Below are positions 4,889 to 49,244 of a stretch of DNA of 58,792 nt, one piece after another. The stretch lies in NCBI GenBank assembly GCA_964468955.1, contig CAYXXB010000001.1, forward strand, positions 1-58,792. The letters run 5' to 3'. Numbering within the stretch: the stretch's first letter is position 1; every line of letters starts with the position of its first letter. This stretch comes from an uncultured Clostridia bacterium. Lineage in GTDB: Bacteria > Bacillota > Clostridia > Christensenellales > Borkfalkiaceae. Both the position numbers and the translations under genes were made by a program. Below the pieces are notes generated by a model. The model was not told where the DNA came from. It saw nothing but the letters and a program-made list of their open reading frames with translations, and ran no database searches.

Positions 4889-4891
4889 TTT

Positions 4892-7242: not shown

Positions 7243-7249
7243 CGTTATG

Positions 7250-10421: not shown

Positions 10422-11219
10422 TTAGCCGCGTCTCTTGTTTTCTTCAAAACGAACGGATTCTAAATCTTTTGCATCAGCAGGATTATAAAAACCGTCAACG
10501 TCAAATATTCTGCCGTCGTCTTCGTTCAAACCTCTTGCACCGATATGTATAGGCTTAGGTGCAGGCGCGGGAGCGGGCTGCTGTGCAACGGGCTTAGGTG
10601 CGGGAGCAGGTGCAGGCGCGGGAGCGGGTTGCTGTGCAACGGGCTTAGGTGCGGGAGCAGGTGCAGGCGCGGGAGCGGGTTGCTGTGCAACAGGCTGCTG
10701 TACGGGCTGCTGATTATTAGGCATCATAACAGGCATAATCATGGGCTGAATCATAGGCTGACCCATCATCATGGGCATCTGACCCATCATCATAGGCTGA
10801 ACCATAGGTTGACCCATCATCATGGGCATCTGACCCATCATCATAGGCTGCTGCATAGGCATCGGCATTATGGGCTGAACCATAGGCATCTGCTGAACTA
10901 CGGGCTGTACAACGGGTTGCTGTGCAACAGGCTGTTGTACGGGCTGGGGAGCTACCTTCTGAGGTGCGGGCTGCTGAGCGGGCATCTGAATAATGATAGG
11001 CTGCACGGGAGCCGCCGCGCGCGCGGGTGCTTGTACCGCAGGAGCAGGCTGTTGGATTACAGTCTGATTGGTTTTGTTGTTTTCGTTCTTCTTACTGAAA
11101 CGCACCAACAAAACGCCTATAAAAGCTATGGCAGCAACCGCAGCGATAATACCTAATACTAACAGTATCATCTGCCAAGCTTCAAAGTTTATACTTGATG
11201 ATAACAGTGAAGTAAACAT
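10422..11219 (-). CDS. single-pass membrane protein with a P/Q/M-rich low-complexity tail (locus protein A)
   Basis: RBS agaggt. N-terminal TM helix 'MILLVLGIIAAVAAIAFIGVLLV' is followed by RFSKK (positive-inside). The tail is made of QP/PMMMGQ/APAPAPKP repeats, with a short charged non-repetitive C-terminal end. Confidence 0.75.
   Translation of the reverse strand: MFTSLLSSSINFEAWQMILLVLGIIAAVAAIAFIGVLLVRFSKKNENNKTNQTVIQQPAPAVQAPARAAAPVQPIIIQMPAQQPAPQKVAPQPVQQPVAQQPVVQPVVQQMPMVQPIMPMPMQQPMMMGQMPMMMGQPMVQPMMMGQMPMMMGQPMIQPMIMPVMMPNNQQPVQQPVAQQPAPAPAPAPAPKPVAQQPAPAPAPAPAPKPVAQQPAPAPAPKPIHIGARGLNEDDGRIFDVDGFYNPADAKDLESVRFEENKRRG
10552..10692 (-). repeat. in-frame tandem DNA repeat (39 + 51 + 51 nt) encoding 'KPVAQQPAPAPAPAPAP'
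   Basis: Unit ggcttaggtgcgggagcaggtgcaggcgcgggagcgggttgctgtgcaacg recurs at 10552 (short copy), 10591 and 10642. Confidence 0.85.
10752..10853 (-). repeat. in-frame 2 x 51-nt tandem repeat encoding 'QPMMMGQMPMMMGQPMV'
   Basis: Near-identical units at 10752-10802 and 10803-10853. Confidence 0.85.
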
Positions 11220-11587
11220 AACTTTATACCTCTGCTAACTTACAATAAATCCAAGTGCCGAATTGTTCGATTTGACAATATATTTACCGAATATTACGGC
11301 ACACTACTTTTTGTGTAATATATTATCTCACTATTTTTTCAATTCGTCAATACTTTTTTTAAAAAAATTTTAAAAATTATCCAAAATTAACAAATTTTAA
11401 TGCATTTTCTGCAATATTTTTAAAATCTTAAAAAATTCTATTGTTATTTGTAACTGTTTTTTATGCTGTTCAAGCTTCGGTTACCTGCATACCCGCAATA
11501 AATTTTGTTGCGGGTATGCGGTAATCCGTTAGTTTTTTTGTGTTTCAGTCCGTTTTATTACGGAAGCTGTTCACCCTCTCCCTTTAA

Positions 11588-14500
11588 TCAGTATTGAGGA
11601 TTATTGGGGTCTTGAGGAGTGATATAAACCGTCGTCTGTCCCGGCTGAGGCAACTGTGCCTGCTGAGGAGGCATCTGAACCTGCTGGGGAGGAGGCGCCT
11701 GAATGATTATGGGTTGAATCTGCTGTGCGGGCTGAGGTGAAGGCAAAGCCTGCGGTGCGGGAGGCGCAGTTACAATAATTGCGGGTTCTTCGTGACCGCC
11801 GTTCTTATTCCTGCGTACCAACAGTATTATAATCAATTCAGCAATTACAAGCACAACCAATACTACGAACATTATTATCCAGAACAGGTTGCTTCTTTCA
11901 CGCGTTATGTTAAGGGTAATCGTTCTAACAGGAACAGGTGCTTCATTGACTGCCGCTCTTCCCATTGCACCGGAAATATTATCATAAATTTCGATTACAA
12001 CCTGATTTGCGCCGTAATTCAATTGCTCGGAACCCTTAAACTCATAGCGGTACATAGCTTTATCGATGTCTACAACTAATCCAAGATAGTCTACGTTCGA
12101 TGAAACGTTGTACGAGTAATCGTCCTTTGCAGGGTCGAAATCATCCTTGAGCGTTGCAATACCGCTTGCACTCAAACCTAACAACGAAGCGCGCTCGCGC
12201 GAGAATACGAAGATAACCGTCTTTTTCGAGTAACCGTCGCTTGAATACATCGTGATGTTGAATACGTTTGTACCGTAATCAAGTTTAACATTTGCGGATC
12301 TACCAGAAATTGTTCTAGGTACGATAGTGTTACTGTTCTGACTGTCTACACGCAAGATTTCAAAGTCGCCACCGTAGAAAAGGTCTACAATCATTTCGAC
12401 CCTATCTATTTCATGATTGTAAGTATCAACCACTTTAACGAGAGCTTCTTCGGTATCGATATCAATATCAATATAATCGGGTTCGATATCGTATTTGTTG
12501 CTCCAAGTTATTCTTGCGTCGGGGCCACTTTTTTCACCCTGTTTTTCGCGGGTGATTTCGAATATGAAGCAATCCCTGCCGTCCACGTTAGCTCCGTTTT
12601 CCGCTACCGCATAAACGATAAGCGTTGTGGTGCTGTCTTCAGGCAAATCGAGATAACCGTTAGCGCTGAGTGAAGGATTTGTTACAACCGAACTCTTTAC
12701 GCTTGCCGTGGTAACGACAACCTTTACTCTGTTCTGACTTGCAGGAACAGTAATTTTTACAGGTTCGTTGTTATATTCGGAAGGAACGTCGTCGTAATAA
12801 TCTCTCGTACCGTTGATAACGATTCTTCTGATGTCGTAATTTTCGTCAATCACGACAGGCTTTTGTGAAATAGTTACGTTGTAAGTTCTTGTTGAACCGT
12901 CTTCAGCCGTTACCGTAATGGGATAGTTCATCGTGCTGGTTGAATCGCTTAAATTGAACGTGAACTTACCTATTCCCGCAACAGTTGAAGTGGTTACGTT
13001 GGGTTCCGCCTTAATTTCTACGTTGTACGAAGGGCTTTCGTCAACAAGAATCGTGTAATCAAGACGATCGGGATCGAACGAACCTTCGTTGAACGCTACC
13101 GCTCTGTTGCCAATCATAACTACCAGCGACTTCAATGCTACGTCCGAATTAGCGCTTTCTCTGCTAATGCGGATTTCGTACTCTTCGCTTATTTCGCCCT
13201 TATCGCTCTTAGCATGGAAATAAATGCTGGTTGCGACGCCTTCAGGCAAGTCGATAGTTCTTTCGTGGTTGCGGCCGTTGCCGCCGGGAGCCTTTTCAAA
13301 CTTATTATCCAAATAGTCGAACACTTCGGTATACATACCGTCAGTAGTAACCGTCATCTTGACTGATTTTACGGTATAAGGAACGGTTATATCATAGGAA
13401 GTCTTGCCTGCTTCGAATTTGAATACGTCCTGAGTAAGATTTTTACCGTCCGCCGTAATAACCACGTTTTCTATCGTGTTCTTTTCTTCGAAGAGGTTGA
13501 TAACGAATATGTATTCCTTCTCGCCTTCGCCGCTTGAAGCCTTCAGTTTATACTCGTTTCTGCCGGCAGCCACCGTTGCCGAATAAACATTGGCTATAGA
13601 AGTATCTTTGATATTACCTACAGTAGTTACCTTTGCTCCGCTTGTAGGAATGGCTTTGATACGCACGTTCGTACCAGCAGATACTTCCGAAAGCTTGAGG
13701 TCTACCGTGTAAGTCATTTCAACTTCGTCATACCTTGACGATGAGCGAACGTCCACGTAATTGTTGCCTGTTTCTGCAAATTCAAGCGTTTCGAAATCGC
13801 CGGCAATAACTACTCTCTTAACAGTTACCGTATAGGTACCTTTTGCACCCGATTCAGCTACAACCTCTATCTTATAATCGGTTGAATGGCTGCTATTACC
13901 TACGAATGCAAACGTATTCGTTATAGTGCTTGTTCCCGTCTTGCCTCCGATTTTGGACGTATCCGACGAAGGCGTAGCCGTGAACTCGACTACCGTAGAA
14001 GTTTCGTTTTCGGGCTTCTCGATTTCAACCACGTAATCATTATTTTCAGGGTCGAAATTGATAGGCATCTCTTTGCCGCCGATTTTTACGACAAGTTCCT
14101 TCAATGTCGTAGAAGGATCGGCATTTTCTCTGGTAATGTTGAAGGTATATTCCCTACCTTTTGCAGAACCGTCACTCTTGCCTTTGCCTTCGTTTGCTAC
14201 GCCGTATATTACAACCGTAGTAGTTTCGCCGCCCTTCAAAGTTACTTTAACTTCGTAAGCGTCGCCTTTCTTGCTGGTAAGGCGAGTGCCGTCCCTGTAA
14301 ACGTAGGTGTACTTGCCTTCTGGCGTTATATCGAAAGTTACACTGCTTACAGCATTGCGTACGCTTATATCATAAGTATCCGTGAACGCGTCGAAATCGT
14401 AATCGGATTTGTCAAGCTCCGCAGTGCCGTTGCTAATAGTTACATTGCTTAAATCATCGATATCTTCGGTAAGCTTTATGTTGAAATTATATTCGGTTTT

Positions 14501-17500
14501 GCTTGTCGCCGAGCTTGATGCCGTAATTTTGAAGTTATTATCGCCGAACTTGGACAGCGTGTATGCGTAAACGTATACGTTGCCTTCGCTGTTATCGAGC
14601 GTTACGCCCGTACCCGGTGTTGCCTTGGAGTCGGCATTCGCGGTAACTCTGACATAAATCTTAGAACCTACCGCCACGTCTTCTACGTTATACGTAAAGG
14701 AATACGTCTTTGCGTTAGTTCCCGAAGCTTCGAAATCAGTCATTACAGACAAGAAAGATGAATTATCTAAAGACGTTTCTACGTCGTCGAAATCACCCTT
14801 TGCCAATTCACGCTTAATGTTGATTGTATAAGTCTGAGCTGCGCCAGCTTCGGGCGTTACCACAATCTTATACGATTCGGTCTTTGCTGTCGTTCCGAAA
14901 GTGAACGTTTTAGTGCTTGTAGCCGTGTTTACAACTTGCGTATCAGAATCAATCTTGATCTTTGCTTTTTCACTATCCGTCGTTGCGGAAATAACTATCG
15001 AAGCGGTTGCGTTACCCGTATTCTTTATCGTGTGGTTATACGTAAACGTATTATTTAAGTCTAACGCTTCGTTAAACGATATAACTTCTCCGTCGATCGT
15101 TACCTCGAGTTCTTTCAGCTTATTGTTGTCGTCGGCTGCTTCTCTGGTAATATTGAAGGTATACAAAGGACCTATCTTGCTGGGGTCCTCTTTCGTGTAC
15201 AGATCGTTATCCGCAACGGAATGAATTATCACCGTTTTGGTTTTACCTGCCTCGAGGGGTATATCAAACGTATGAGTAAAATCAGCGCCAGCAGTGTGCG
15301 TAAACTTTTTGTTCGTACCGTCGAAAACTACCGTGTATTTACCTTCCGTAGTTACGGTCATCTTTACGGTGCCGTATCCAAGATAAGGTACTGTGATATC
15401 ATACGTCGTGTTGACGCTGTTCGAATCAAACGAGAACGGAACTTCCTGCAGTTCTTCCACTGCTGTACCGTTGGGCAACGTTATTTTAACGTCTTCTATT
15501 CCGCGTTTGTCTTCAATCAGATTAACTACTATCTTGTAAACCTTCGTCTTGCTACCCGCCTTAACCGTGAGCGAGTATTCGTTTTTGCCGAATGCAAGGC
15601 TGCCGTTCCAAGGGCCCGTTGTCGTGCTTGTTCCTACAAGACTGGTTCCCTTCTGTACGCTAGCTTCCTTAGATACCGCACCTTTCAAGTAAACGTACGA
15701 ATTAACGGGAACATCGTCAGTCTTCTGCGTTATAGTGTACGTACCCGTGTTTGCATCGTAGTCGGACGAATCAAGTACAGAATAATAATTATTCGTGTCC
15801 TTGAAGGAAATCTGCAAATCCGTAAATACGGGGTCGGGTATAACGTGCTTTACGGTAACAGTGTAGCTATTGCTTGAGCCGTCTTGCGCGGTAACCTTGA
15901 TAGTATACACCGTGGTGTTTTCCGTGCCTGCCGTGAACGTGAACGATTGATTTGAAACACCGTTCGTCATAGCGGTAAAGTTGGAAATACCGCACGTCAA
16001 CGAAGAAGTCGATGCAGTAGCCGTTGCGGTAAATACTAACGCCGCGGAAGTTGCTGTATCGGGCTTTTCCAATGCAACATAATAAGTGAGATTGCCGGAG
16101 GTGAAGTTAACGTCGTTATCGTAAGCGCTATCCAAGAAGCCTACGGGAGTTCCGTCAACCGTTAACGACAAAGAACTTAACGTTGCGTTACTGTTGGCTA
16201 CTTCCCTTTGAATATTGAACGTATAGGGCGAGCCGACGTCACCCGAAGTGCCGTCCGCCTGTGCATGAATAACAACTGTCGTTGTCGAACCTGCCGTAAG
16301 CGCCACGTTTGTGAGCGTATGCGTCGTTGTGCCTGCCGTATGCGCGAACGTCGTGCTGGGTTCACGCACAACTGACGTGTAGGTACCGTCTGTCGTTACG
16401 GTGAACGTGACGTTATCGTAACCCTGATAAGGAACGGTTATATTGTAAACATACTGTCCTGGGCTGAACGTAAAGCCGCCGACGTTATCCGAACCCTTGG
16501 CTATGGTAACGTTCGTGATCGTATTCTTACCTTCGGCAAGCGTAACGACAAACTTATAAGTGGTCGAGCCTACGCCCGGAGTGTTTGCCGTAAGGCTGAA
16601 TTCATTCTTACCCTGACTTATCGCCTTTGACCAACCTCCAGTTATAGTTGTCAAACCGCCCGTAACAGAAATCGTAGCGCCTTCGGAAGCAGTACCTTTA
16701 AGATAGAAAGTGTTTCCTGTTGCACCGTAAATCGAGGGGTCGTACGTAAGATTGTATGTATAGGTGTTGGTGTCCGCATCGTAAGACATATCCGTAATTG
16801 TGGAAACGTCCTGATGATTGGAGTTTGTTTTGAAAGCGTACTTAAGATCTTTGACAGTACCAGCTTGCAAATCTTTTGCAACCACGACACTATATGTCTT
16901 TGTGTTGCCGGCTTGAGCCGTAACTACAAACGTGTAAGTCTTAGCGGAACGCATCGTAGATGCGGAGAAATCCGCTCCGTCAACCTTTGCCGAAGCATTA
17001 GCAGAACCAAGGGTAAGATTGAACGTACCCTGGAAGCCCGAATCTTCACTAAGCAGGAAATAATATCCGCCCGACGGTGCTTTAGTTGAGTCGTTAGTTA
17101 CAGTCTTGTTCGTCGTCTTTTCCGTCATAGTCAATGATGAAATAGACGTATCGGTATCCAAAACGTTGAACGTGATTTTATATTTTTGGGTATTACCGCT
17201 CTTTGCCGTTGCGGTGAATTCAAGCGTCGCATTGTTTGTAATGCTTGAAACGGAAATCGAACCTCCGCTTGTAACTTTATTAGCCGCAGTACAACCGGTA
17301 GCAGCAACGCTTATATCTGTGCCGATACCGTAGTTGTCAGCAACTGCAGCACCTACGTCCACCGAGGTATAATCGCTGGGAACTTTTACGGTATATTCAA
17401 ACGTATTCTGATTGAAGTTTGCCGCCGTCAAGCCCATACCGGTATATGTGGGCGCTGTTGTCACCGTTAACGTTTTTAATCGTGCGTAACCGCTGACAAT

Positions 17501-18526: not shown

Positions 18527-18579
18527 ACTGTTTACCTTATATATAATAACGGAATTTGGATTTCCGATATTTTACAAAA

Positions 18580-21768: not shown

Positions 21769-21935
21769 AAGTACCTCCTCAAAAGAACTTATTTATTTGA
21801 TATTAATTTGGTTTTTTCGACGAAGCTTGTCGAATTTTCGCACATATTATACACCTGACATTGCATCTTGTCAAGAATAATTCAGACAAGAATGCAATGC
21901 TTCGGGTGTATTTTGTTTGTTTTAACTACTTCTGT

Positions 21936-42900: not shown

Positions 42901-44489
42901 TTGAGCTTAACCGTCATCGTACCGGTAGTGGCGGTGCTTGCAAGCACCGCGTTCTGCCAGTTGAGGATATCGAGCTTGTTAGTCCACCTTACTTCCGAAC
43001 CCGCACTTGTAGTAACGCGCTTATTATCGGGGTCGATCCAGTAATGGTCGGGATTGGAAGGCTTGAAGAATTGCGTCGGGTCGTCGTTGCCGTTAGCCGC
43101 GCCGTAGCCCGAAGTAATCGCAGCCCAGGTCATACTCGCAATGGGCGTAGATACGTAGTTATCCGTGTATTTTACTACGTGAATTTCCGCGCCGGGCAAC
43201 AGCTTTTCAGAAACCGCTATAACATTGGTTCTTATTGATTTGGCAATGCCTGTACCCTGTCTGCCGCAGTATAAATCCAAGTCGTTGGGGTATTTAGGAG
43301 AAGATGAGTTGTACTCGTCCTGAACGTAGTTGTCCTTTATTACGATTGTTCCGCCTACGTAAAATTTGCTACTGGTATTGCTTCTTACACCGCCCGAAAT
43401 GTAACCGATATTGCCCGATATTTCGCCGCCGAGCAAATATACCTTCGGTGTTGTGTTCGTACCATTCGTAGCATCAATGCCGCCTGCGCCCTGTTGTTTA
43501 CCCATGCCGACGTTGCCCGTAATTTTGCCGCCCTTTATCGTGGTCGTAGAGCTGCCGTGCGTAAAAATGCCGCCCGTACCGTGGGTTGTTTTAGTGCTTG
43601 CTCCGTCGCATAAACATTTATTGTTGCTTATTTCGCCGTTGTGCATTGTAAACGACGTGCCGTTATTGTAAACGCCGCCGACGTTGCGGGGATCACCCGA
43701 AGCCAGATAGCATGTGTTATCGGTGATTTTGCCACCGTACATATCGAACGTAGAGCTACCTGTAAGGGTAACCGCACCGCCCCAACTACTTTTATTGCCC
43801 GTAATTGAGCCGCCGTACATTTCCACATGACCACCGTTAACGGCTACGCCTGCGCCCATATAAGATCCGTTAGAAGAAGAATAAGAATTCCATCCGCCCG
43901 TGATTTTACCGCCGCCTACGGAGTCGGTTATCTTCAGATAGCCTTGAACATATATTACGAAGCCGCCCTGAGTCATAGCCTTGCCGAGACTGCTGACGTT
44001 ACGGTCTATCGTGTGACCCGCCAAATCGAGTTCTATGTACCAACCGCTGGGAACGCGGAGCGCACCCCCATAACGATAGTCGGTACTTGAGGGTTTATAG
44101 TACGCGTTGGAGTTGCCCGTGCCGAACTCCGTTCTGAACGTAGTGGCGTTGGTTGAGTCCTTTACTTCCGCAATCCAGTCGCCCGCAAGCGTTACCTTTG
44201 CGTAATTCGCCGCGTTACCTTTCGCCGTGATAGCCGCAAGCCACGCAGTCTGGTTTGCCGAGTTGGCGTTTGCCGCGTACGCCGTGGTCGTTTCCGCGTT
44301 ATCCGAAGCTTCGTTGTTCCAGAACTTAAATCCCGAAATACCGAATACCGCGGTAAGCACCGTCAGCATAAACAGTATGCAAATAACCGCCGTGCGCCAT
44401 AAACCTGCACGACGAACCGTCCTTACGGAATTCATTCCGTTGCGGTTGTTTGCTTCATTTATCCTGTTTTCCGTGTTCTTGTTTTTCAT
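21936..44489 (-). CDS. 7,517-aa giant surface protein (locus protein E)
   Basis: Uninterrupted 22,554-nt ORF with RBS aggtga. The N-terminus is basic with a hydrophobic helix 'TAVICILFMLTVLTAVFGI'. It carries 14 beta-helix-type modules, an MBG-like/Ig-like repeat array and a dockerin-like C-terminus. Periodic protein-level repeats exist only in this frame. Confidence 0.85.
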   Translation of the reverse strand: MKNKNTENRINEANNRNGMNSVRTVRRAGLWRTAVICILFMLTVLTAVFGISGFKFWNNEASDNAETTTAYAANANSANQTAWLAAITAKGNAANYAKVTLAGDWIAEVKDSTNATTFRTEFGTGNSNAYYKPSSTDYRYGGALRVPSGWYIELDLAGHTIDRNVSSLGKAMTQGGFVIYVQGYLKITDSVGGGKITGGWNSYSSSNGSYMGAGVAVNGGHVEMYGGSITGNKSSWGGAVTLTGSSTFDMYGGKITDNTCYLASGDPRNVGGVYNNGTSFTMHNGEISNNKCLCDGASTKTTHGTGGIFTHGSSTTTIKGGKITGNVGMGKQQGAGGIDATNGTNTTPKVYLLGGEISGNIGYISGGVRSNTSSKFYVGGTIVIKDNYVQDEYNSSSPKYPNDLDLYCGRQGTGIAKSIRTNVIAVSEKLLPGAEIHVVKYTDNYVSTPIASMTWAAITSGYGAANGNDDPTQFFKPSNPDHYWIDPDNKRVTTSAGSEVRWTNKLDILNWQNAVLASTATTGTMTVKLNADIIAVGGKFVAPAELTADANGKMFTDHNEGYNSTSDLWLKVPAAKSIVLDLNGHTIDRGLTAATAVQTTGHVIKVDGGTMELTDTSAAQTGKITGGYNINSSATTAGNGGGIHVSSSGTFTLSGGIIEDNYANQGAGIYINTGTVNINGGIVRNNTAITRSDGTLGNGGGINAVDAGKADININGGEISGNHALKGGGVYLGGTTTAKQAALRLTMLGGKIINNVAETEAGGIGFGFKNNYFAIGDNPVIEGNTANGAANDVHLPSVKLTDTDKIDNGLITIVKPLTTTKKIGVYRDILFTITSGYPANNGTANPANYFTAQKPGCFIDTDETTGEAVMVSAHGADNWSTAVTMSKILNGKLYTVKLTEDWTAVDNATANFGTSFLGDEEADTSTAATNPYWYGSLNVVTGSAIVLDLNGHTLDRGLSDYSVGMMYGNVINIVGGTLYIKDSSTARTGTITGGFVSNNKGLYTGGAITLTNASSTLVVQGGNITGNRSNATDSKGTTMFGAGAIGIQVAGGRVTVTGGTITNNLGNFAGGIGMVSLKSGTLSLGGNPRILNNFQSDDCQEFGVGNPSDIYNPSATAGSTVAHMNDGANYKIEIISPLTSPAKIGIHRPDTNNITLETTNGNIFTRGYGTYNTQPASDFFFSSDTSYGIILEYGLGAAKEATYWIRSAAKNWSDAVNAGRDAVTGQPITVKLYENWIAVDGVFGTGTGFTATGALDLPKSNIILDLNGFRLDRALDSSIEHGYVLNTSGTCRLEIRDSVGGGIITGGYNSTEGEAGGINITSATTYLSIYGGKITDNIGDAGGIATFVDTTFTKANYFAMGGSAVVTGNKNTFDKPLNINLRAKYAQVITFDRTESQLTSPEKSGIYFEASSDFTNGFAHYHTDGAAAHFVADDPDRFVIDSGAETGEAALYTWDNYTNWYNAVTESVKLGTQRKVTLVSHWTADTMGRFGDASDNQSLTNGALWTNAANIILDLAGYTIDRALGSGIDNGFVILIADGGTLKLIDSVGGGKITGGNNTFTSSDDYVGGGINNRGKFIMEGGIITGNRAVGHALSTGGVYTDTHANNTFIMTGGVITDNTGSFTGGVNVSGAAKVYLGGKAQIYGNKLLSGAPSDVLNNGGTVANKINVYSQFESGARIAVAYVGNNYGNLDNNVFTSSFASLNKTIEPKDVFEASDPLKYVIGKRDLGSGIEGMLICIDNEQNWRQGIAATSTAAAPITVTLNRDWLAEDYTTFVTAFGTQTAAYSNGGLNVPAGKYIILDLAGHKLDRRLTTPRTMGYVINVIGNLTVIDSSASKSGVITGGYSTDTGGGITYRDKDATGALTLLGGKITGNIGIAGGVEIARSDNKVLPFSFGDSAIVTGNTNNRLLASDIVANNAVQMIDIISPLTQKGRGLTGFTRDGVGDFTTNFKKFMPSEVPTDFFTSTDPMYVYNFENGEGALYTSSNQLNWLYAVKASVTGNKKQITFKLVDDWLSDAGSFGVDSTVNAFYAANGGALRVPANANIVLDLAGCTLDRGFRAAVDLGYVIRVEGMLKIIDSSTTGKGVITGGFNNSESTNEYDQSSVIAILGNGAVTMEGGTIKGNRATGKQSAAIVLDLTTTTFTMTGGTITENYGGPKDAHTGAGAINLRTSLTLKLGGSAKIFGNKHNFGEYSSDVHFNAANYYVEIVQKFNKSANIGISPNDKVNNYNNATKGKGGVQFTKNFSNFHPDADDTPDRYFFGSWYLWHDVTTIYLDTGREGAFWCMENYTNWVNAVAASSATTTITFELTDNWTAESSEKYGTTFHPSDTSAFKNGAIYLPAKKSIILDLKGFTIDRGLFDGAAVDNGAVITILGNLEIIDSVGGGMIVGGNNKNGGGGIIVDSTGVLTVHGGTITENKGTEGAGIHVIKGGKLTLGGAIDIYGNTDASNAPKNVYIAVKDALINVDKQLVPTQVIGVTRLGNGTVTSGFQTYMPGNSPLECFKSENDNYYGIEGGDGELFFLSPDNFTNWQYAVDQSVKTGGKLQTVRLTDHWTADGDASLGTSFGSGTGFSNGALYVPETANIELDLNGKTINRNITSARQYGLVFVVLGKLTIYDSAEKDENNKAIITGGKNDRNNTNFYAGGIHVGGKATLKMLGGTVSGNWNASTSTNSASGVYVVKGGTFMLQDAAVINNQSTYAGVYIEDGAMFSVSGKAVVEGNKSGAGVQKDVVFGVKTGVMGVTDTLTEGAHIGVYKSVNNYADGSLGGSKITSNYSRYNSEPASTFFFASDDPFHKVIDLTSGGATEAALYCYDNATNWKNAVTYSTTSKTEVTFKLFGEWVATRNNETTSFGSDTTAFTKGALRVPASAQIVLDLNDGLINRDLPRANDDGYVIYVEGKLSIIDTSTGGSGMIAGGWTTGTSINDAKYASGIHVVSKGKLSMEGGAVSDNNGVGVYLAGNNTFSLGGKTRITGNQFSNGNVTNLYLHNETQMINIISEFGSSAQFGVMRAKGSSNFGSGTLTTNYSKYNKTVEPTTYFTSDDNRYMIVDEGYLDDASMEAAFIGKDNLTNWAHAVKTSLANGGRAQVCTLFEDWTADTHGTFTKSFGDISGLSAFYRGALYVPAKCHVILDLNGHIIDRALVSPIKDGEVIYVRGTLVIKDSDPDQKGRITGGFTDGNSTSYSNGRAGGIAVYQGTLSIEGGTITGNKAKNFAGGVYLSGGSTFSMLGGKITGNYGKDYGGVYVDGSATVRLGGSAYIHGNKQLDNLNAVVDQESNVYIQTNTNKLFISDNFREDARIGVSVNVNHVPAAGRYITKDWNLLNNEYEATTVFSTDHPESYSLADYNQDGTHEALMTLRDNKLNWANTVKASQDLKKTQTFVLYDDWRATQTSASSTSFGSGTGYNGGELFVPTNASIIFDLNGNTIDRGYHGRVEGISEGAVFHVEGELIIIDSKAKTDRNGNIVQGKITGGYRGTYGGAICACKGKVTILAGLITDNRSGGAGAISITGGKLALGGTVQFSDNYLTNGRREDITFWSNTSPLIEIASAFVTGEDVTKNDIFVKRNIIGEFTKDWGKYNPTSKPETRFKAAVNTYRVASTGTGAQREAVMLSNNNNDNWVFAVTASLSNKEPQYFSLVDNWTAANYSGGSYTTRFGTNSTAYRSGALLVPAGANIVLDLNGNVLDRNHGLANDIKYPAINVVIIVEGTLQIVDSSIMQTGVIKGGSYGVYVNKDTASLTVGGLIKPDGLVLNGDEANLYGTYGAGTITSNSIYGINVNAGSLTVTGGKITGNTNADVFVSKNTAASVSVGDNAYIYTENRTAGTGLRLENPLGIINVASKLTNDAKIGFSRQSVGQLTKGWGAKNGNDADPYASIFVSEEPAIYNRKTEVFDGYTELSVSSFDNAVNWQFTVDKSLATGEAQEFTLYGCWTAAADEELTTSFGSGTAFRNGALYVPEGAKVTLNLNGHKINRNLKTSVQNGMVIYADGELEIVNNKVDNPAGLIPPTCCDRSEGVITGGANLTGSSGGALHIGATGSVTLTDGKISNNKGESQSASAGAVYSAGKFFMNGGTISSNTAKYSGAVYVAGSGMFVMTGGTIESNTAESGGGAVYTTGTVNFTGGTITKNYAVIGGVYVASNGKFTMDGDALITANTGSSAGAVFVNSGSGTYFTMNGGTISNNKAIGAGGIYSAGKTDILGGTITGNTATGTSENDGGGAIYVTSTGNVTVTGGEITANTGENGIRVYGAGTMSVGGSARIYNNIAMDKTNVGGDREVEPNDYCDIFFNLATKKLNVVSEFTEEAKIGIYRLNAGIFTSGFGMYNDVHPNTVFVSNRSIFAISKTASDDVTNIEASIGTPVDPEPNALETPRTYNGNWQSIIENIDLSMMTIGEYDTTVMRESVGSDGLVKIEAVNAGTYHVAFTLKDTYCWKDGTTDVKVIYTTVTPKTVALKWSKETHYVDGNPVLDDLGIDPICVYDGTTEHKPFVEVAAGYLVTNAITGKLDECTVAISGATKDASGPDGHTAKATGLSNSNYKLGTGAEVEYKFHVLKAERPEFEITTTTAAYNYPTKIEVSGNLENGKLTYEVDASCKSFASFNENGELIAKKYDPDTPVIVKIKVTAGESKNYKQSEATAEITVVRGKLYATIVPAEVTFGTSVQLTLEGEFSATDIIGAIKYTKSLTGDGQASLSESGLFTATGVGKVYVTATVEESVDYEATTIEAVIEIIPKVLTVNWGTSLTTPYSGSPQTLAAPTLEGTNSSDNCTVSVYKAGFLGWDSKKQAPTWSEVGKYDVGLVLSDPVNYKLENDSDYFATFEIVKADLTEDVFKFTSYSASVGVPFKPEVTGNPAGSNVKITKESDTIRGNYDLDRTTGEYTAYTTGTMTFKAVFEGDKNYNPKTIWGVFTIAETDIPLEISPSELTYGDPATEIKLSYKNPNDPNPIPATATATVISLDSSYNAIAELVEIDGKKCILPKAAGTIKIHVEHPAASPYKQTSVDLEVVIKPLPVKVDWTFDTNGYIYNGTAQYPTATITGTLVGSDLCGVTGYEAYQLKDGEYVKVEGGAINAGDYKIKAIFDNANYVIDEDYSANLTIKPLPVDLSWSNTNLVYNGKEQAPTAGVFNIVIIDGEMDECTVTVVGTKNAGTNLTARATELSNPNYTLEGGKNLTEKFTITPKSVTVTWGETDLVYTGERQAPKATAVGLLGKADGLEEDDTTEVVVTGEQVNVNPADNPYTATASSLSNHNYQLDPDVYHTTQFNIVKATPTITLKQTEAIYGTQFILQIDGNAGNGTVTYSLGEGDGVTATLGSGNLLTPIDVGSIEVIVSVAATQNYNGVTEQKYTLPIKPRPIEVSWDDLVFDYDKNPHNPTATVTNQVGGEVLELTLSAAQTNAGTYTATVTGIKLLGDLTNKYTLEGGTDISQEFVINKKVVTITWSNTEFTYDGDDHAPTATIGDLEDGDTCTATVKGAKDAGMNIVAEITELSNSNYTVEGAANETVRFNIYQRLAKLSWSDTELPYTGSEQLPTVEITNLVEGDECTVNLDGAAVDVGTHTATAISLSNPNYTLVFDDDETDPEKRTQIECEFEIVKGKITIELVDDEVTFGSEITLSLVENPSGNDPTFAIVTGGTGSGSITDGTTFKATGAGTVKVSVHVASSANYDEADDEVEVTVKKLPVVIEWVDGEFTYNRTKQTPTASVSNVVDGYPCNVTAIDGSTDAGENLEAKVTAVDNDNYTIEGGTNITTNYAIQPLPVTMITWDSDRTYEYNGDSQGPNATASGIIYPDECKVTVSGWQTNVGDYTAEITGLSNSNYSLVGIVDLTVDFKIVISTPTLTLKTTEVQIGTTKKIEVEGNIGNGDMTYTIVSGGDYGELNGDSLYGKMLGTVRIRVDVAATSNTNAAYVEGDINVVKGQPPLKLERNTVMYGSTLTLTVDDNGGALRDGNGDLMFGNVTFTVVSRYANVAEIVDGNVLKPKSAGTVYVKMETEETDYFDAAKGNNAVTVEITITPRIITLGWKDGTFTYNAKDQHPEVEITNIVGNDKVELVVSGGKNVGDHTAKVTGLTGVDSKNYTLDRTTNKEKDFHINPYVLSLEWGDLTLPYNGEDQTPEAIVELVDGETAECNVILEVEGPHKNVGTYTVKATGVDNNNYELDQTYETTFQIVPADLKPTLTPASIEYGKTEVLTLGGNIDGAPYDLQVDSSNSVGNGVVNNDNGKWTFTATRVGSVKIKVKINGTTNCNPFNGVLEIEVVKAERNVELLTLEGVYGEDLVLEISGNDDDPGLVSFAPAASDNDYAVIVGNKLTPKHAAYVTVIVQVAATDNYKSATVSAQVHIKPRVVEIEWQHHEFEYDGTEKKPEAKVANLINDDECEVTVGGGGTNAGHYTNAHVISLSNPDYTFEGSISASGHMFDIAKKAIKIEIVTDRINVDDEVKLVITGNEGDAPVTVTVDESGNAKIKEGTTDVIVALNKGSVNVTVSVAESQNYFGDTKTKLIIIDKSKLTLTLKNNTIQYGDKKGLVLDVEGNVENQKVYFDKTDMDGSCHLISDNTVLMPDGAGKVIITATIMETENYAKTVAEFEVTITPIVVDLVWHNFEFTYDGKNMFAPTATVRTGLVTNSEGVTDECTINVKGAQLNVGTYKEGTAYADDECLSNKNYSLGGKVIKAPQFVINRAKLSLSFVTKVITIGVSTKLEIAGNMEFGQTLFAMGEVTDTALLDNLGVAAFDDVMTGMITGTQLGYVHVSVTVMPTDNYEGGQAECDILVDKPEAPIELQVTTVTFGDEVSLNPIVTDNSYALGDFDYFVELDLNKVAKNTGEALVSGLAAFKAMKVGIVYVNLHVDATDDFRETDKSIPITIVPRVLGFVWDTDTEFEYNGEEQHPDVVGFTNLVFDPDINDGDITLEYEGSIYASEEATATITALNNENYTLEGSTTATTTFVINPRKVILSWTIGELIYNGEKQAPEATVTNRVKNDVVHVTVDGQIDAGENLTAEAVAVSNSNYTVDGGTNITTTFEIKPYAVNIHWGDLHLTYTGTVNVPTATAVGLKGEVVNVTVEGVGEDTGSCVHASNKPYQAQATGISGNTNYTLNTAGSVVTTRNSIRKMDVSTPEPLITDYYIDKKELTFSSKVTSVEYNGEAQEPSFIPDVFASDTGNLSISYIFDGGVTPVNVDEYDTYISLGGSASSDYKLSADDMQSFKFKITPKKVQVLVTPMNQTAEYTGEAVKLTDWYTLSIVSGLIGDDIGSSLEDIFTSNNLKINPLFKLSDGSTVSSVGARGTYGLSADLTNVTGKLSGNPNYEAEFKLNTEANATLTISGDAALQLTEDSTFKFLHLDTNEMYGFMFMYRVSYDEKGWVHGKDDTDFERVVLGNILPGTFAGEFLDNINPAQLDSIRLYNYDGELVYDCGKDIGIDDSDLRSDESYLIGTGWKVTYGKDESAADVVYLSVLGDVTGEGYCDGDDMSVITNYVAASNTSSLEDLEFLLAALITNSGYVSASDLSEVGSIGNGYSNVEDFLV
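21939..22148 (-). other. dockerin-like C-terminal segment of protein E
   Basis: 'GDVTGEGYCDGDDMSVI...ITNSGYVSASDLSEV' is collinear with the protein D C-terminus. Confidence 0.5.
22900..31400 (-). repeat. alternating array of about 20 MBG-like ('Y(N/D/T)G..Q.P.a.V') and about 14 Ig-like ('.YG......i.G') domains
   Basis: Motifs such as LVYNGKEQAPTAGV, LVYTGERQAPKATAVG, EFTYDGDDHAPTATIGD and LPYNGEDQTPEAIVEL are each followed by 'SN(S/P)NYTLEG....F.I.P'. They are interleaved with modules like 'TEAIYGTQFILQIDGNAGNGTVTYSLG'. Confidence 0.7.
31420..44270 (-). repeat. 14 diverged modules of about 290-310 aa, each with an 'NW..AV' cap, an 'LDL(N/A)G.(T/I)(I/L)(D/N)R' signature and G-rich beta-helix turns
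   Basis: Counted in the translation: IELDLAGHTIDRN, IVLDLNGHTIDRG, IVLDLNGHTLDRG, IILDLNGFRLDRA, IILDLAGYTIDRA, IILDLAGHKLDRR, IVLDLAGCTLDRG, IILDLKGFTIDRG, IELDLNGKTINRN, IVLDLNDGLINRD, VILDLNGHIIDRA, IIFDLNGNTIDRG, IVLDLNGNVLDRN, VTLNLNGHKINRN. Each is followed by 'GG.ITGN.....GG(A/G)(I/V)(Y/H)'-type turns. Confidence 0.8.
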
Positions 44490-45056: not shown

Positions 45057-45086
45057 TGCGCACACGCTTGCCAAATTATGTGCAAG

Positions 45087-45131
45087 CATAATAAAAGCGG
45101 GGTTGCCGATATATGGGCAACCCCGCTTTGG
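45087..45131 (-). terminator. intrinsic terminator of gene F
   Basis: 14-bp stem aaagcggggttgcc/ggcaaccccgcttt starting 15 nt after the F stop codon. A T-rich tail follows on the minus strand. Confidence 0.75.
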
Positions 45132-45143
45132 TTTTTATGTAAT

Positions 45144-48100
45144 TTAATCCTGTTCTCCGTCGTCGGGCTGTTCGCCATCCTCAGGCTTACTTTCTTCTGC
45201 AGGCTCGTCGAATACGGGCGGTGCGATTTCGGGTTCTTCTTCGGCAGATTGCTCTTCAACCTCGGGTTCTTCCGCAGGCGCTTGTTCTTCGGCGGGTTCG
45301 TCGAATACAGGCGGTGCGATTTCTTCCGCCTGCTCGGCAGGTTCTTCCGAGGCAGGTTGTTCTTCAACAGGCTCGTCGAATACGGGCGGTGCGATTTCCT
45401 CTTCAACAGGCTCTTGAACGGCCGTTTCAGCTTCTTCCTGCTCCGCTTCGGGCTGGGCTTCTACCGCCTCTTCCGCATCTTCCTGCTCCGTTTCAAGCTG
45501 CTCCTCTGCCGTTTCCGCTTCTTCCTCTGCGGGAGCTTCCGAAACGGATTGCTCTTCAAAAGGCTCGTCCGCTTCGGGTACTACTTCTTCAATCTCGGGT
45601 TCTTCCTCGACAGGCTGATTGTATACGGGCTGTGCAACAGGCTGATTGTATACGGGCTGCTGATAAATAGGTCTTCCGTATATATCGTACATAGGTCTGC
45701 CGTACATATCGTACATAGGCTGACCGTATACAGGCTGTTGTGCGGCTGGTTGAGCCGTAGGCTGTTCGTAAACAGGCTCTTCTACGGGTTCAACCTCGGG
45801 TTCGACTTCCTCAACCTCGGGTTCAGTCTCTTCAAATTTTTCAACCTCGGGTTCGTCCTCTTCTGGTTCGATTTCAGGTTCAACCTCTTCAGCTACTTCA
45901 GCCGCTTTAATCTCGGGTTGCTCCCCGACGGATTCTTCAACGGCGGGTTCTTCCCCGATATTTTCCTTATTATGCGCATGTTCCGCCTCGTTGTTTGCTT
46001 CAAGCACGTGCATAATCGAAATCTGCTGAGCATCGGATTCGCCGTCGTGTTCAGCCCCTTCGTGATGCTCAGTATTGTGACCTTCGGGAGTGTGTCCGCC
46101 GCCTCCGTTACCGCCATGAGGCGTACCGTCTCCGTCGTGTCCGCCCTTCTTGCGCTTGTAGTAAAGCATTAAAATTACTAATACAACTACCGCACACACG
46201 AGAAGCGCTATTAAAACGCAAAGTAAAATTATTACAACGTCGTTTAAGGAATTGTAAATTAGGAACGTTTTAGAAAATTGTATGCCTTTATACGTATCCG
46301 TCGTACCCTCTACGCTCGCTATCAGAACGTAAGAACCCGCTTTCATTCCGACAAGCCTGTTTAAGCCGCTTACGCTGTCGTAATAAACGTCGTCCATATC
46401 GTCTTCGGCAACAATTTTGAACGTTACCGTGCCGTATTTGGGCGTTGCCGTAGGGTATTTAGGGGTTTGGCTGTCAGACCAGCTTTTAATGTCGGGTTCG
46501 GCTATCCAGCCGTTATCCGCAAGCTCGACCGTAAACTCATACGCAGCCTTTTCAATCTCCTTATGAGTATCCGTTTCCAAAACAAAACACCACAAATAAT
46601 ATGTGCCGGCTTTAAGTTTATTGAACGCGGCTTCCGCTTCCGCAGATACTACGCCGTTTTCCGCCGTGAACGATTCCAAACTGGCAACGTAGTTTAAACC
46701 TTCCGCGTCGTAAGTCACGCCGAATACGGGCGAGAAAACCAACGGCTTAGCCGCGATTAAATTGATCGTACGGTCAAACGAATTCCACTGATAATCTGCA
46801 AGATTAGGGTTGGTAAGCCATCTGTTGGTTGCTTTATCTATTATATAATTGACTTTGCAGACTGCGCCTTCGATTCCCTTCCAGCGGTAATGCACGTTAT
46901 CCAACAACGTGAGGGTCGCTTCGTAAGTTCCGATTGCCGTCTGAACGTTGTCTTCTATCGTATAGCGCGCGTCTTCTTCCGCAGGAGTCACTGTCTGAGC
47001 TTCGCCCGTATATTCTACAACTACGAATTCGGGAATTTCAAGAACTTCGTAAAGTATGATATCGAAGTATTTGCCGCCGTCAGCAACCGCTTCGCTTTCG
47101 TAGTTGCGCAAATTTATCTGATAATAAATTCGGTAAGTGTCCGCTCCCGCAATGAGAGCAGCCCATTCCTCGGCTGATGCGGGCAGGTATTCGGCATCTT
47201 CAATGACAAGACTGAATGTAAGGTAAGGTTTTTCGTCGAAATAATCGTCGAAAACTTCCGCCCAATAAGTGTTGCTGTTTACGATTGTCTGCTTGCTGAA
47301 AGCGCCTTCAACAAACGTTTTGCCTGCCGTAACGCCGAAGAAATTGTTATAATCGCCTTTTATTGAACCAAAATCGACCTCGTAAGGCTTCATTTGATCG
47401 TTATCTTTGAAATTTACGTCCAAATCGTCGTAAATACAGGTATCTGCCGTTACTTCGAAATCGAACGACAGTGTTGTACCCATATATGCGTTGCCGCAAT
47501 TAGAGCTGTTACCAAGCCACCAATCAACGTGGGCGCCGTATAAGGTTACAAGTTTGGTATTGAACGTAATCGTATACACGCCTACGGGCGTATATTCGTT
47601 TATATAGTAGCTGAAACGCGAACGGGGTTGATCGCGGCAAATAAGCGTATCTCCGCGCATTATCGTGAACGTTACGATATCTTTACTGCCGTCACGCCAC
47701 CCATCATCGTAATATTTGATTGTTAAAAGCTGTTCGCCGTTTTCATCTAGAATAGGATTACCTTCTTCGTCGGTACTTTCAATAACCGTAAACGCCAATA
47801 TAAGGTCAACGTCAAGCTTGTAGCCGTTGGGTTGCTCATACCTGCTCACACCGCTTAAAATTTCGTCGCCGTGAGCAACGCAGGGTGCGTATATTCCGCC
47901 TTCGGGCAATTTCCCGAAGGTCCATCCCGTCGGAAATACGTATTCATCTTTATCCCTTGACTCCGCACTCGAACGATCCATATATTCGTTGAAATACTGA
48001 ACCACGTACCAATCCTTTGTTACAAGGTACGTGCCGTCGTCGTTTTTCCGGACAGTCATACCAAGATCGGATTCGGTTTTTCCGGCTGCTTCCAAGTCAA

Positions 48101-49244
48101 AATACAGCGAATAGTTTGCAATAGGTTTAACTATCGCGGTAGCTTTGTAACTGCCTAATTCGCTCGCCTCGTTATCAGTGTATTCGGCGTTAAAGTATGC
48201 ATCCGAACCGCTGTCGAGATAGAGCTTTATAATATTATTAACGCCTTCGCAGTACGACACTAACGACCGCTCATTGGGATTAGAAGAGGATACAGCCGTC
48301 CAATTTTCCCAATCAGAATAAGGGGCCTTAGCCAATTCGGAAGCGGAATAGAACTTCTTCACTTCCCCGCTGTCGGTAACGTTATAAGAATATTCGTACG
48401 CAGCGCCAAGGTTAAGTTCGTTATGTCCAGACCTGCCGCGAACCCACGCCAATTTTTCGGCGAGATTTAAGCTTAACGGCTTGATTACAAGTCTGAACGT
48501 GGGATTTTCGTAATTGCTTTCGTCTGAAACGGTGAAATCGTAAGTTCCGACGTCAATTACCTGACTATCCCTCGTTGATTCTTTATCTGTACCCGAGTCC
48601 TTGATTATCGTTAAATTATTGTAATTTTTTTCTTTCGAATACTTTATGCTGCCAAGAAAAGCCCAAACGTGTTCGATTCTGTTAGGGTCCGGCGCTCTCC
48701 AATATGAGGTTTCCGCATAAGCTTCCTCGTTTATCTTTCCCGCTAAATCGGCATGATCGGTAGAGTTCGGTTCCTTATACCACCATTCGAGATGAGCTTT
48801 CTCTATTGTGAGCTGAAATGTTTTTTCTCCCGTACCGCCGTCAGAACGCCATACGCAGTTTTCGGCAGGGATTACAGTGACGGTATATTCGCCGGCGTCC
48901 TTCGCGCCGGGTTCTTTTACCGTGTTTCCCGTGCCGTCATCATGCGTAACAAACGCTTCTTCCTCGGACACTACATTTCCTTCACTGTCAAAAATCTTTT
49001 TTAAAAATTTTTTATATTGGAAACGCTCTCTGTCAACATTTTCCGCAGTCCAAGGATCTCCGTTGAAAATCATGGATTGATCATCGGGATCGTCAATTTC
49101 AATCTGCCCTTCGTCAGCAACGGCAACAGGCGTTTGAACACCCTCTCCACGCGCAAAACAAATAAAAGGTATCGCTGCGCTTATTAGCATCACCAACAAA
49201 ATCAAGTTCAAAACGTTTACTATTTTACGTACGTGTTTTGACAT
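45144..49244 (-). CDS. 1,366-aa type-I membrane protein (locus protein F)
   Basis: RBS gagagga and signal peptide 'LNLILLVMLISAAIPFICFA'. The ectodomain is about 1,000 aa with MBG-like units, e.g. 'EYTGEAQTVTPAEEDARYTIEDNVQTAIGTYEATLTL'. TM 'VVIILLCVLIALLVCAVVVLVILMLYY' + KRKK is followed by a tail of about 339 aa that is acidic and P/H-rich. Confidence 0.8.
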   Translation of the reverse strand: MSKHVRKIVNVLNLILLVMLISAAIPFICFARGEGVQTPVAVADEGQIEIDDPDDQSMIFNGDPWTAENVDRERFQYKKFLKKIFDSEGNVVSEEEAFVTHDDGTGNTVKEPGAKDAGEYTVTVIPAENCVWRSDGGTGEKTFQLTIEKAHLEWWYKEPNSTDHADLAGKINEEAYAETSYWRAPDPNRIEHVWAFLGSIKYSKEKNYNNLTIIKDSGTDKESTRDSQVIDVGTYDFTVSDESNYENPTFRLVIKPLSLNLAEKLAWVRGRSGHNELNLGAAYEYSYNVTDSGEVKKFYSASELAKAPYSDWENWTAVSSSNPNERSLVSYCEGVNNIIKLYLDSGSDAYFNAEYTDNEASELGSYKATAIVKPIANYSLYFDLEAAGKTESDLGMTVRKNDDGTYLVTKDWYVVQYFNEYMDRSSAESRDKDEYVFPTGWTFGKLPEGGIYAPCVAHGDEILSGVSRYEQPNGYKLDVDLILAFTVIESTDEEGNPILDENGEQLLTIKYYDDGWRDGSKDIVTFTIMRGDTLICRDQPRSRFSYYINEYTPVGVYTITFNTKLVTLYGAHVDWWLGNSSNCGNAYMGTTLSFDFEVTADTCIYDDLDVNFKDNDQMKPYEVDFGSIKGDYNNFFGVTAGKTFVEGAFSKQTIVNSNTYWAEVFDDYFDEKPYLTFSLVIEDAEYLPASAEEWAALIAGADTYRIYYQINLRNYESEAVADGGKYFDIILYEVLEIPEFVVVEYTGEAQTVTPAEEDARYTIEDNVQTAIGTYEATLTLLDNVHYRWKGIEGAVCKVNYIIDKATNRWLTNPNLADYQWNSFDRTINLIAAKPLVFSPVFGVTYDAEGLNYVASLESFTAENGVVSAEAEAAFNKLKAGTYYLWCFVLETDTHKEIEKAAYEFTVELADNGWIAEPDIKSWSDSQTPKYPTATPKYGTVTFKIVAEDDMDDVYYDSVSGLNRLVGMKAGSYVLIASVEGTTDTYKGIQFSKTFLIYNSLNDVVIILLCVLIALLVCAVVVLVILMLYYKRKKGGHDGDGTPHGGNGGGGHTPEGHNTEHHEGAEHDGESDAQQISIMHVLEANNEAEHAHNKENIGEEPAVEESVGEQPEIKAAEVAEEVEPEIEPEEDEPEVEKFEETEPEVEEVEPEVEPVEEPVYEQPTAQPAAQQPVYGQPMYDMYGRPMYDIYGRPIYQQPVYNQPVAQPVYNQPVEEEPEIEEVVPEADEPFEEQSVSEAPAEEEAETAEEQLETEQEDAEEAVEAQPEAEQEEAETAVQEPVEEEIAPPVFDEPVEEQPASEEPAEQAEEIAPPVFDEPAEEQAPAEEPEVEEQSAEEEPEIAPPVFDEPAEESKPEDGEQPDDGEQD
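45202..45398 (-). repeat. three dispersed copies of a 29-nt unit encoding 'IAPPVFDEP' in the tail of protein F
   Basis: ggctcgtcgaatacgggcggtgcgatttc at 45202 and 45370. A 2-mismatch copy is at 45294. Confidence 0.85.

Follow-up and report, generated by a model that had tools for sequence, protein, structure and literature searches.

A conserved five-gene cassette of uncultured Clostridia as a candidate divergent cohesin/X-dockerin system for tethering a giant surface protein

Cohesin-dockerin assembly is familiar above all from the enzyme machines of cellulolytic bacteria. That a cohesin/X-dockerin link can serve a non-enzymatic adhesive protein is not new as a principle: the CttA protein of Ruminococcus flavefaciens is fixed by such a load-bearing link, from its X-dockerin to the cohesin of ScaE (PMC4266597), and Clostridium perfringens uses the modules outside enzyme assembly. 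For the Christensenellales, a cockroach single-cell genome study mentioned Pfam-detectable dockerins and one case of a cohesin, and read them as cellulosome components (PMC10266427). Here, we analysed a stretch of 58,792 nucleotides from an uncultured Clostridia bacterium (assembly GCA_964468955.1, contig CAYXXB010000001.1, positions 1 to 58,792 of the forward strand; hereafter the window), which holds six surface-protein genes, F, E, D, C, B and A. We read five of these genes, E-D-C-B-A, as the core of this locus, a cassette for surface assembly by a divergent cohesin/X-dockerin system of the Christensenellaceae / Candidatus (Ca.) Coproplasma neighbourhood, and we consider it probable that the pair tethers the giant product of gene E to the cell surface in cis. 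In the literature searched, we found no description of the E-D-C-B-A cassette or of its cohesin family.

The closest known case is the type III complex of the CttA X-dockerin with ScaE (Protein Data Bank, PDB, 4IU2 and 4IU3), and by analogy the window system would work like the anchoring branch of a cellulosome. CttA binds substrate, is not an enzyme and has an X module and a dockerin at its end; this dyad plugs into a single-cohesin protein on the cell envelope, as is predicted here; 4iu2_B and 4iu3_B are among the fold matches of the window module. ScaE is anchored by sortase, whereas the anchors here are a transmembrane helix (B) and a lipobox or transmembrane segment (C). The X-like domain of the window is unlike the CttA X module (TM-score ~0.24-0.28), and the cargo part, which in CttA consists of two carbohydrate-binding modules (CBMs), would here be ~7,500 amino acids (aa) of beta-helix and MBG repeats. 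No cellulases belong to the window system, and its cohesin family is not detected by Pfam.

More distant likenesses are found in three other systems. In the type II system of Clostridium thermocellum (the X-dockerin II of CipA with SdbA, OlpB or Orf2p; PDB 5K39 and 4FL4), N-terminal cohesins are likewise combined with a C-terminal envelope anchor, an X module stands ahead of the dockerin and a similar adaptor logic applies; its anchoring by surface-layer homology (SLH) domains and its enzyme-loaded scaffoldin with nine cohesins differ from the single-cohesin proteins of the window, which have no CBM3, SLH domain or enzyme. The glycoside hydrolase pairs of C. perfringens (2VO8) show cohesins and dockerins at work in a gut Firmicute in a role other than plant cell-wall degradation, but there the modules join secreted, toxin-associated glycoside hydrolases to each other, whereas here they would join giant non-catalytic proteins to membrane anchors. 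With fibrillar adhesins, B and E share typical stalk and beta-helix repeat types; known adhesins of this kind are anchored covalently or by an anchor domain of their own, whereas E has no recognised anchor and ends in an X-dockerin.

By its domain content, the window system is not a cellulosome: Pfam found no carbohydrate-active enzyme (glycoside hydrolase, esterase or lyase) in the six proteins or in 10 X-dockerin relatives, and no SLH match or sortase signal in the window proteins, while a cohesin profile and Pfam found no multi-cohesin scaffoldin or CBM in the window. An earlier reading from the letters alone (the sequence-only reading) had seen no LPXTG, SLH, choline-binding, glycoside hydrolase, transposase or integrase signal, and none turned up in our Pfam scans.

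Cohesin-fold and X-dockerin modules

The sequence-only reading had claimed that B, C and D all begin with one paralogous beta-rich domain, which it read as cohesin-like. The paralogy was confirmed by BLASTP for a domain of ~190 aa, the copies of B and C being 27% identical over 202 aa (E-value 4e-12), with matches at 3e-9 between B and D and 1e-4 between C and D. An exhaustive HMMER search with a four-sequence profile against 1.84 billion representatives retrieved 74 proteins, ~49 of them with the full domain. The AlphaFold2 model of C residues 73-260, built from a 52-sequence alignment, is an all-beta sandwich (predicted local distance difference test, pLDDT, 96.5; predicted TM-score, pTM, 0.90) with the nine-stranded jelly-roll fold of cohesins, and exceeds classical cohesins by ~40 residues. 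Indeed, cohesins of type I, II or III made up ~40 of its top 50 Foldseek matches in the PDB (probability 1.0, TM-score 0.56-0.70 normalised to the target). The best match (E-value 8e-8) was 4dh2_A, the type I cohesin of OlpC, and the third-best was 2vo8, the non-cellulosomal cohesin of C. perfringens GH33; further matches were 6kgf (Clostridium acetobutylicum CohA2), 5lxv (R. flavefaciens ScaC) and 1aoh (CipA), together with the type II cohesins 1qzn, 2y3n and 5k39. Model and matches bear out the proposed cohesin-type jelly-roll. A search with the cohesin profile located a single such module in B, in C and in D and no further one in the rest of the window; we take it as shown that each of the three proteins carries one cohesin-fold module.

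At the level of sequence profiles, Pfam Cohesin matches below threshold occur in 9 of the 52 family members (best E-value 2.6e-4), and PDB profile searches with 3-sequence and 52-sequence profiles returned no cohesin, just weak first-strand matches to alpha-2-macroglobulin. We rejected sub-threshold matches to BatD, Big_8, Big_12 and Arrestin_C as shared-strand similarity, since they cover the first beta-hairpin only (xVxVxxDKxxxxxGDTFTLT). We also rejected an identity with CLIPPER, an isopeptide-bonded stalk domain of Gram-negative adhesins, which came up at Foldseek rank 9 (9ifr) and is outnumbered by ~40 cohesins in the match list. Across genomes, the nearest neighbour of a cohesin was of its own type (B, C or D) in 32 of 43 tests, and the same held for dockerins in 26 of 33, a suggestive pattern that is compatible with distinct specificities and too weak to assign binding partners.

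D and E end in one homologous module, as had been claimed: BLASTP gave 42-43% identity over ~195 aa (E-value 1e-47 to 1e-49). In the AlphaFold2 model of the last 200 aa of E (pLDDT 93.3), residues 1-130 form an alpha/beta X-like domain and residues ~132-198 form three helices (142-152, 163-169 and 179-189), that is, the three-helix dockerin fold of ~60-70 aa with its two duplicated segments. This last part of ~65 residues superposes on solved dockerins, including 4fl4, 4uyp and 1ohz_B, with a root-mean-square deviation (rmsd) of 1.5-2.0 Å over 60-64 columns (TM-score 0.76-0.85 normalised to the dockerin, probability ~1.0); the Foldseek E-values are weak (0.07-1) because the domain is small. 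Pfam Dockerin_1 (PF00404, cut-off 22.9 bits) is not reached by the window copies, with 13.6 bits for D and 13.9 for E, in matches that are near full-length (profile positions 1-50 and 1-52 of 57). The best PDB sequence-profile matches of the module are also dockerins (9gvb_B and 6kge_D). Half of ten scanned homologues lie above the Dockerin_1 cut-off over the full profile (34.1, 26.4, 26.3, 24.1 and 23.6 bits), and these match our module profile at E-values of 1e-35 to 1e-41. For two homologues, P0077 and P0088, a PF00404 assignment was already precomputed; NCBI names P0077, which is 43% identical, 'dockerin type I repeat-containing protein'. The superposition and these homologues support the dockerin reading; membership in the dockerin family is given by fold and, by sequence, only transitively through the homologues.

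From the 17-sequence alignment of the module, the consensus reads ...VYxSVLGDVDGDGxxxxxDxxxIxxYI...ExRLAAYxxNxGxIxAxD. Its first Ca loop (DVDGDG.....D in the family) is close to canonical and appears as DVTGDGYIDGDD in D and as DVTGEGYCDGDD in E, with Thr at position 3 in the window; this loop probably binds Ca2+. The second segment keeps just N4, G6 and D12 family-wide and reads ITNSGYVSASD in E. The dockerin-type Ca loop seen in the sequence-only reading stands as one canonical first loop, not as a pair, the second segment being degenerate. Because one segment is degenerate, the dockerin likely has a single binding mode.

The X-like domain of ~130 aa directly precedes the dockerin and is conserved with it in the 17 sequences. 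Foldseek gave no convincing PDB fold match for its model, and its TM-scores to known X modules (4wkz_A and 4iu2_B) are 0.24-0.31. D and E are each shown to end in an X-like domain followed by a dockerin-fold module. Six related proteins carry a tandem pair of X-dockerin modules at the C-terminus (L024:197-3253, L026:4620-7952, L029:8126-11050, L056:8141-11008, L059:195-2906 and L068:904-3921), which recalls the double dockerin Clo1313_0689 of C. thermocellum (8x39, among the fold matches of the module).

The remaining parts of the proteins fit the division into anchors (B, C), adaptor (D) and cargo (E) drawn by the sequence-only reading, which agrees with the topologies from our hydropathy scan. 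C starts with a hydrophobic segment ending in ...FPAC, followed by a D/N/T/G-rich linker of ~45 aa and the cohesin; its orthologue P0002 has a canonical LSAC lipobox, and many other C-like proteins have a plain N-terminal transmembrane anchor. By its sequence, C is a membrane- or lipid-anchored cohesin. B has a stalk of at least six cadherin-like beta-sandwiches (Pfam) and, behind its transmembrane helix, a P/Q-rich tail of 72 aa that is cytoplasmic by the positive-inside rule. The hydropathy scan and the lipobox of P0002 thus bear out a C-terminal transmembrane anchor in B and a lipobox-like N-terminus in C. B with its distal cohesin, cadherin-like repeats and transmembrane helix, and E with MBG_2 repeats, have the layout of fibrillar adhesins.

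E has a signal-like N-terminus, with a hydrophobic segment of 23 residues after a long basic N-region in the hydropathy scan, and self-BLAST resolves two repeat regions. Residues ~80-4300 consist of ~14 units of ~270-290 aa, each starting with LDLNGHTIDR and rich in GGxIxxN turns; this pattern, together with a Chlam_PMP match in one short homologue, leads us to infer units of beta-helix type. Residues ~4480-7317, ~2,800 aa, are MBG-type Ig-like repeats (MBG_2 at 31.2 bits against a cut-off of 25), which Pfam recovered when E was scanned in 600-aa pieces. On whole proteins, Pfam gave nothing in E or F and Cadherin-like alone in B and D, and in the pieces of E it gave MBG_2 only.

Conservation of the cassette in relatives

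Is the combination of the two modules found elsewhere? Of the 49 full-domain proteins, all retrieved solely by their cohesin, 14 have the entire C-terminal module as well (E-value 1e-17 to 1e-85); these are D-type adaptors of 727-960 aa. We then mapped the cassette by local hidden Markov model searches of loci and four genomic-context look-ups and found its order kept in at least 15 further contigs, which come from metagenomes or from metagenome-assembled genomes (MAGs; L002-L004, L006-L009, L011, L013, L015, L080 and L083-L086). The expected co-occurrence was found both in the same polypeptide and in the same gene order, and this order is conserved in many related genomes, in which the cassette proteins are only 20-45% identical.

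In these contigs, the first gene encodes a giant X-dockerin protein (called sizes 6,041, 7,796, 8,022, 8,094 and 8,558 aa) and the second a cohesin plus X-dockerin protein of ~750 aa. The third, in most, is a small N-terminally anchored cohesin, which is absent in L008, L009, L011 and L013 and stands ahead of the adaptor in L015. The fourth product has 1,500-2,300 aa, an N-terminal cohesin and a C-terminal transmembrane helix, and the fifth, where the contig reaches that far, is an A-like protein of 228-271 aa. L084 has the same dapB-dapA-asd flank as the window.

A itself spans the membrane once, by an N-terminal transmembrane helix, and has a low-complexity region rich in P, Q and M and, at its C-terminus, the conserved motif EDDGRxFDVxGFY; no cohesin or dockerin was found in it. 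BLASTP of A against the first locus set gave no match because of low-complexity masking and flank limits, and A-like genes were later seen directly after the B-like gene in L083-L086. Thus, A, to which the sequence-only reading had assigned no part, is a conserved fifth cassette gene. A QPIIIQxP-type motif is common to A and the cytoplasmic tail of B, and a tail that may be related, ...VKITGMGxNDGxY, closes the B-like proteins P0027, P0034 and P0072. Inside A, at 10557-10696 and 10734-10850, lie two tandem arrays of 51-bp repeats with 2.7 and 2.3 copies at 93-97% matches. The PAPAPKPVAQQ and MMGQMPM repeats of the protein are encoded there, and the arrays could allow length variation.

A word-indexed homologue search had given just 1, 1 and 15 proteins, the lineage being poorly represented there, and it was the exhaustive and genome scans that opened the family. 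The only match of the first of these searches, P0001, is an ENA fragment of 170 aa, whose end we trimmed from the alignment; its C-terminal ...LSLVHISEPTRRS is presumably a translated sequencing-adapter remnant. A genome scan with the module profile, in which each GTDB species was represented by one genome, turned up 123 relatives at 78 loci. With the exception of one contig, all are in MAGs of uncultured Clostridia, Christensenellaceae, Christensenella or Ca. Coproplasma. The exception, L033 (CAZDPJ010000029.1), encodes an X-dockerin protein of 2,914 aa on a contig labelled 'uncultured Staphylococcaceae', which may be a binning or labelling error. Some mouse-gut and other MAGs (MGBC120187, MGBC162486 and SRR15634022_bin.6) have at least 13 to more than 20 separate X-dockerin genes each, of ~500-1,100 aa, with more than 20 loci in MGBC120187. 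Most of the short proteins inspected combine a lipobox-like start (...LLVVGC), one beta-helix unit resembling the units of E, repeats of MBG type and the X-dockerin, and look like miniature versions of E.

Proposed assembly and competing explanations

We propose that secreted E would plug its dockerin non-covalently into a cohesin by one of two routes. In the first, it would dock on the cohesin of D, whose own dockerin would bind B or C; in the second, it would bind the cohesin of B or C directly. Ca2+ would be bound in the first dockerin loop, and the X-like domain would probably stabilise the dockerin or add to the interface, which is the part that X modules play in type II and type III complexes (PMC4266597). 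By this means, a beta-helix and MBG-type fibre of 7,517 residues would be kept on the cell surface, either at the tip of the ~2,000-residue cadherin-like stalk of B or near the membrane on C, and the link would be a load-bearing joint by analogy with that between the CttA X-dockerin and the ScaE cohesin. Tethering in cohesin/dockerin style was also the proposal of the sequence-only reading, and the fold, dockerin and co-occurrence checks, three of the four tests that it had named, all came out in its favour, with binding as the proposed step.

Several observations weigh against this assembly. C scores 15 bits with Pfam Cohesin (PF00963), below the cut-off of 24.1. The comparison by hhalign of the 52-sequence family profile with cohesin 2 of CipA (a single sequence, verified as identical over its full length to 1ohz_A/2ccl_A) was not significant (probability 0.2), so that family membership of the domain rests on fold, not on sequence. 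In the second dockerin segment, the Ca ligands at positions 1, 3 and 5 are gone. In some Christensenella MAGs, no family cohesin lies within 10 kb of dozens of X-dockerin genes. E and the short X-dockerin proteins have hydrophobic or lipobox-like N-termini and so may be self-anchored. Finally, we infer a non-enzymatic, adhesin-like cargo in E, and this adhesin function comes from domain types only.

Another explanation, which we regard as unlikely, is that the two modules have different partners. The cohesin-fold domains of B and D would then be adhesive tips for a host or glycan ligand, the X-dockerins would bind, for example, a cell-wall polymer or another protein, and the genes would adjoin merely as surface-protein genes. 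The tip, cadherin-like stalk and membrane anchor of B form a classic fibrillar adhesin, and the dozens of X-dockerin genes per genome with no cohesin nearby point the same way; yet the presence of both modules in one polypeptide in 14 D-type cases, and of one gene order over at least 15 contigs at such low identity, counts against it. Similarly, non-cohesin beta-sandwiches (CLIPPER 9ifr, integrin domains and YcnI) are found among the fold matches, but cohesins dominate these, and C has little beyond an anchor and a cohesin, which makes it likelier to be a receptor than a long-reach adhesin.

Quite unlikely, in our estimate, is binding in trans, in which an N-terminally attached E would present its X-dockerin at the distal tip to the B cohesin of a neighbouring cell, or form a loop on the same cell, and would yield cell-cell aggregation instead of plain cargo tethering. 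The position of the B cohesin at the end opposite its membrane anchor would suit such a contact, whereas the C cohesin, near the membrane on its short linker, suits a receptor in cis, and the adaptor D, with its normal signal peptide, lacks an anchor. Attachment of E is suggested by its hydrophobic segment after the long basic N-region and by the ...LLVVGC starts of its short relatives; this segment is, however, followed by a plausible signal-peptidase site (AYA), and E has no properly placed lipobox cysteine. We consider it very improbable that the resemblance is superficial, a generic beta-sandwich and an EF-hand-like helical tail in an ordinary surface-protein cluster, as the sub-threshold Cohesin and Dockerin_1 scores, the hhalign result and the weak dockerin E-values might suggest, given the Foldseek probability of 1.0 with E-values down to 8e-8 against ~40 different cohesins, the superposition of the whole small dockerin domain at 1.5-2.0 Å rmsd and the homologues (1e-35 to 1e-41 to the module profile) that pass Dockerin_1 over its full profile.

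The locus, its flanks and its wider meaning

The open reading frame (ORF) list bears out six consecutive minus-strand genes, which take up ~66% of the window as the sequence-only reading had said, and their coordinates are collected in Table 1. That reading had also placed them between ordinary housekeeping genes, which is correct: apgM, a tetratricopeptide repeat (TPR) protein, Hsp33, asd, dapA and dapB lie on one side, and nadD-HD, obg, rho, a metallo-beta-lactamase (MBL)-fold protein and prephenate dehydrogenase on the other. Four flanking ORFs had no Pfam family at an E-value of 1e-5 (2377-3261, 294 aa; 5819-7087, 422 aa; 49500-50249, 249 aa; 58206-58706, 166 aa). We rejected a mobile-element or phage origin because housekeeping genes flank the locus, neither an integrase nor a transposase turned up and L084 shares the dapB-dapA-asd flank.

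Promoter and terminator calls, which are pattern matches only, suggest three transcription units: F; E-D-C-B; and A. Terminator-like hairpins of 14 bp lie directly past the stop codon of F (45129-45094) and past A (10388-10355), and a consensus scan saw no strong one between E, D, C and B. Upstream of D, all 12 of 12 positions of the sigma-70 consensus (TTGACA, 17 nt, TATAAT) are matched at 21846-21874 on the minus strand, inside the 167-bp gap between E and D, which suggests that D-C-B could be transcribed independently of the 22.5-kb gene E. The GC content is 0.51-0.54 over window positions 32000-44000, the beta-helix-repeat half of E, versus 0.39-0.48 in the remaining locus and flanks, which probably reflects repeats rich in Gly (11.5%).

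F, a type I membrane protein, has a signal peptide, an ectodomain of ~970 aa, a transmembrane helix (1003-1025) and an acidic tail of 340 aa with IAPPVFDEP repeats; no Pfam family, cohesin or dockerin was found in it. An F-like protein, 28% identical, directly follows the giant X-dockerin gene of a Christensenellaceae MAG (L010:10873-15063) and was seen in that locus only. F looks like a separate transcription unit and may not belong to the system, since it has neither module and has a terminator-like hairpin of its own. Of the six-gene system of the sequence-only reading, the conserved E-D-C-B-A cassette stands and the inclusion of F is doubtful.

Table 1. Coordinates of genes and predicted domains in the window, and of related genes in other loci
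Feature	Position (nt)	Strand	Length or residues	Basis or remark
Gene A	10422-11219	minus	265 aa	
Gene B	11588-18526	minus	2,312 aa	
Gene C	18580-19362	minus	260 aa	
Gene D	19516-21768	minus	750 aa	
Gene E	21936-44489	minus	7,517 aa	
Gene F	45144-49244	minus	1,366 aa	
B cohesin	17798-18409	minus	residues 40-243	behind signal peptide
B transmembrane helix	11807-11878	minus	residues 2217-2240	hydropathy scan
C cohesin	18583-19146	minus	residues 73-260	AlphaFold2 model, Foldseek
D cohesin, behind signal peptide	21076-21660	minus	residues 37-231	
D two cadherin-like beta-sandwiches				between cohesin and X-like domain
D X-like domain	19744-20118	minus	residues 551-675	
D dockerin	19519-19743	minus	residues 676-750	
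E X-like domain	22152-22538	minus	residues 7318-7446	AlphaFold2 model, 17-sequence conservation
E dockerin	21939-22151	minus	residues 7447-7517	Pfam sub-threshold, PDB profile, Foldseek
A-like genes	L083:18956-19756; L084:17640-18326; L085:16735-17550			
Short X-dockerin loci (L017-L079)	e.g. L017:8333-10552; L037:7331-10576; L060:7292-10558			

In summary, the features that are new here are a divergent cohesin family, an X-like domain with no fold match, membrane anchoring, a cargo of 6,000-8,600 aa, conservation across the lineage and, in some Christensenella MAGs, dozens of short X-dockerin proteins per genome. The plug and socket are too divergent for standard profiles and sit on membrane anchors instead of SLH or sortase anchors, and the cargo E, among the largest bacterial proteins, stands in a conserved cassette that contains no enzyme. 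The carriers are uncultured gut Clostridia, labelled as Christensenellaceae, Christensenella or Ca. Coproplasma, and their cell surfaces have hardly been characterised.

As a tentative extension, it is possible that the divergent cohesin/X-dockerin pair is a general display system, an 'adhesosome', for non-enzymatic surface proteins of the Christensenellaceae / Ca. Coproplasma Clostridia. Such a system may present single giant cargoes in some species and dozens of lipobox proteins of 500-1,100 aa in others; the X-like domain may be a new fold and part of the interface, and some contacts may be tip-to-tip between anchored partners, forming cell-cell or cell-host junctions. If the pairs bind, annotators of gut genomes would have a new cohesin family to search for, the attachment of these bacteria to hosts, particles or partners would have a testable model, and protein engineers would gain a new cohesin/X-dockerin pair, possibly orthogonal and load-bearing.

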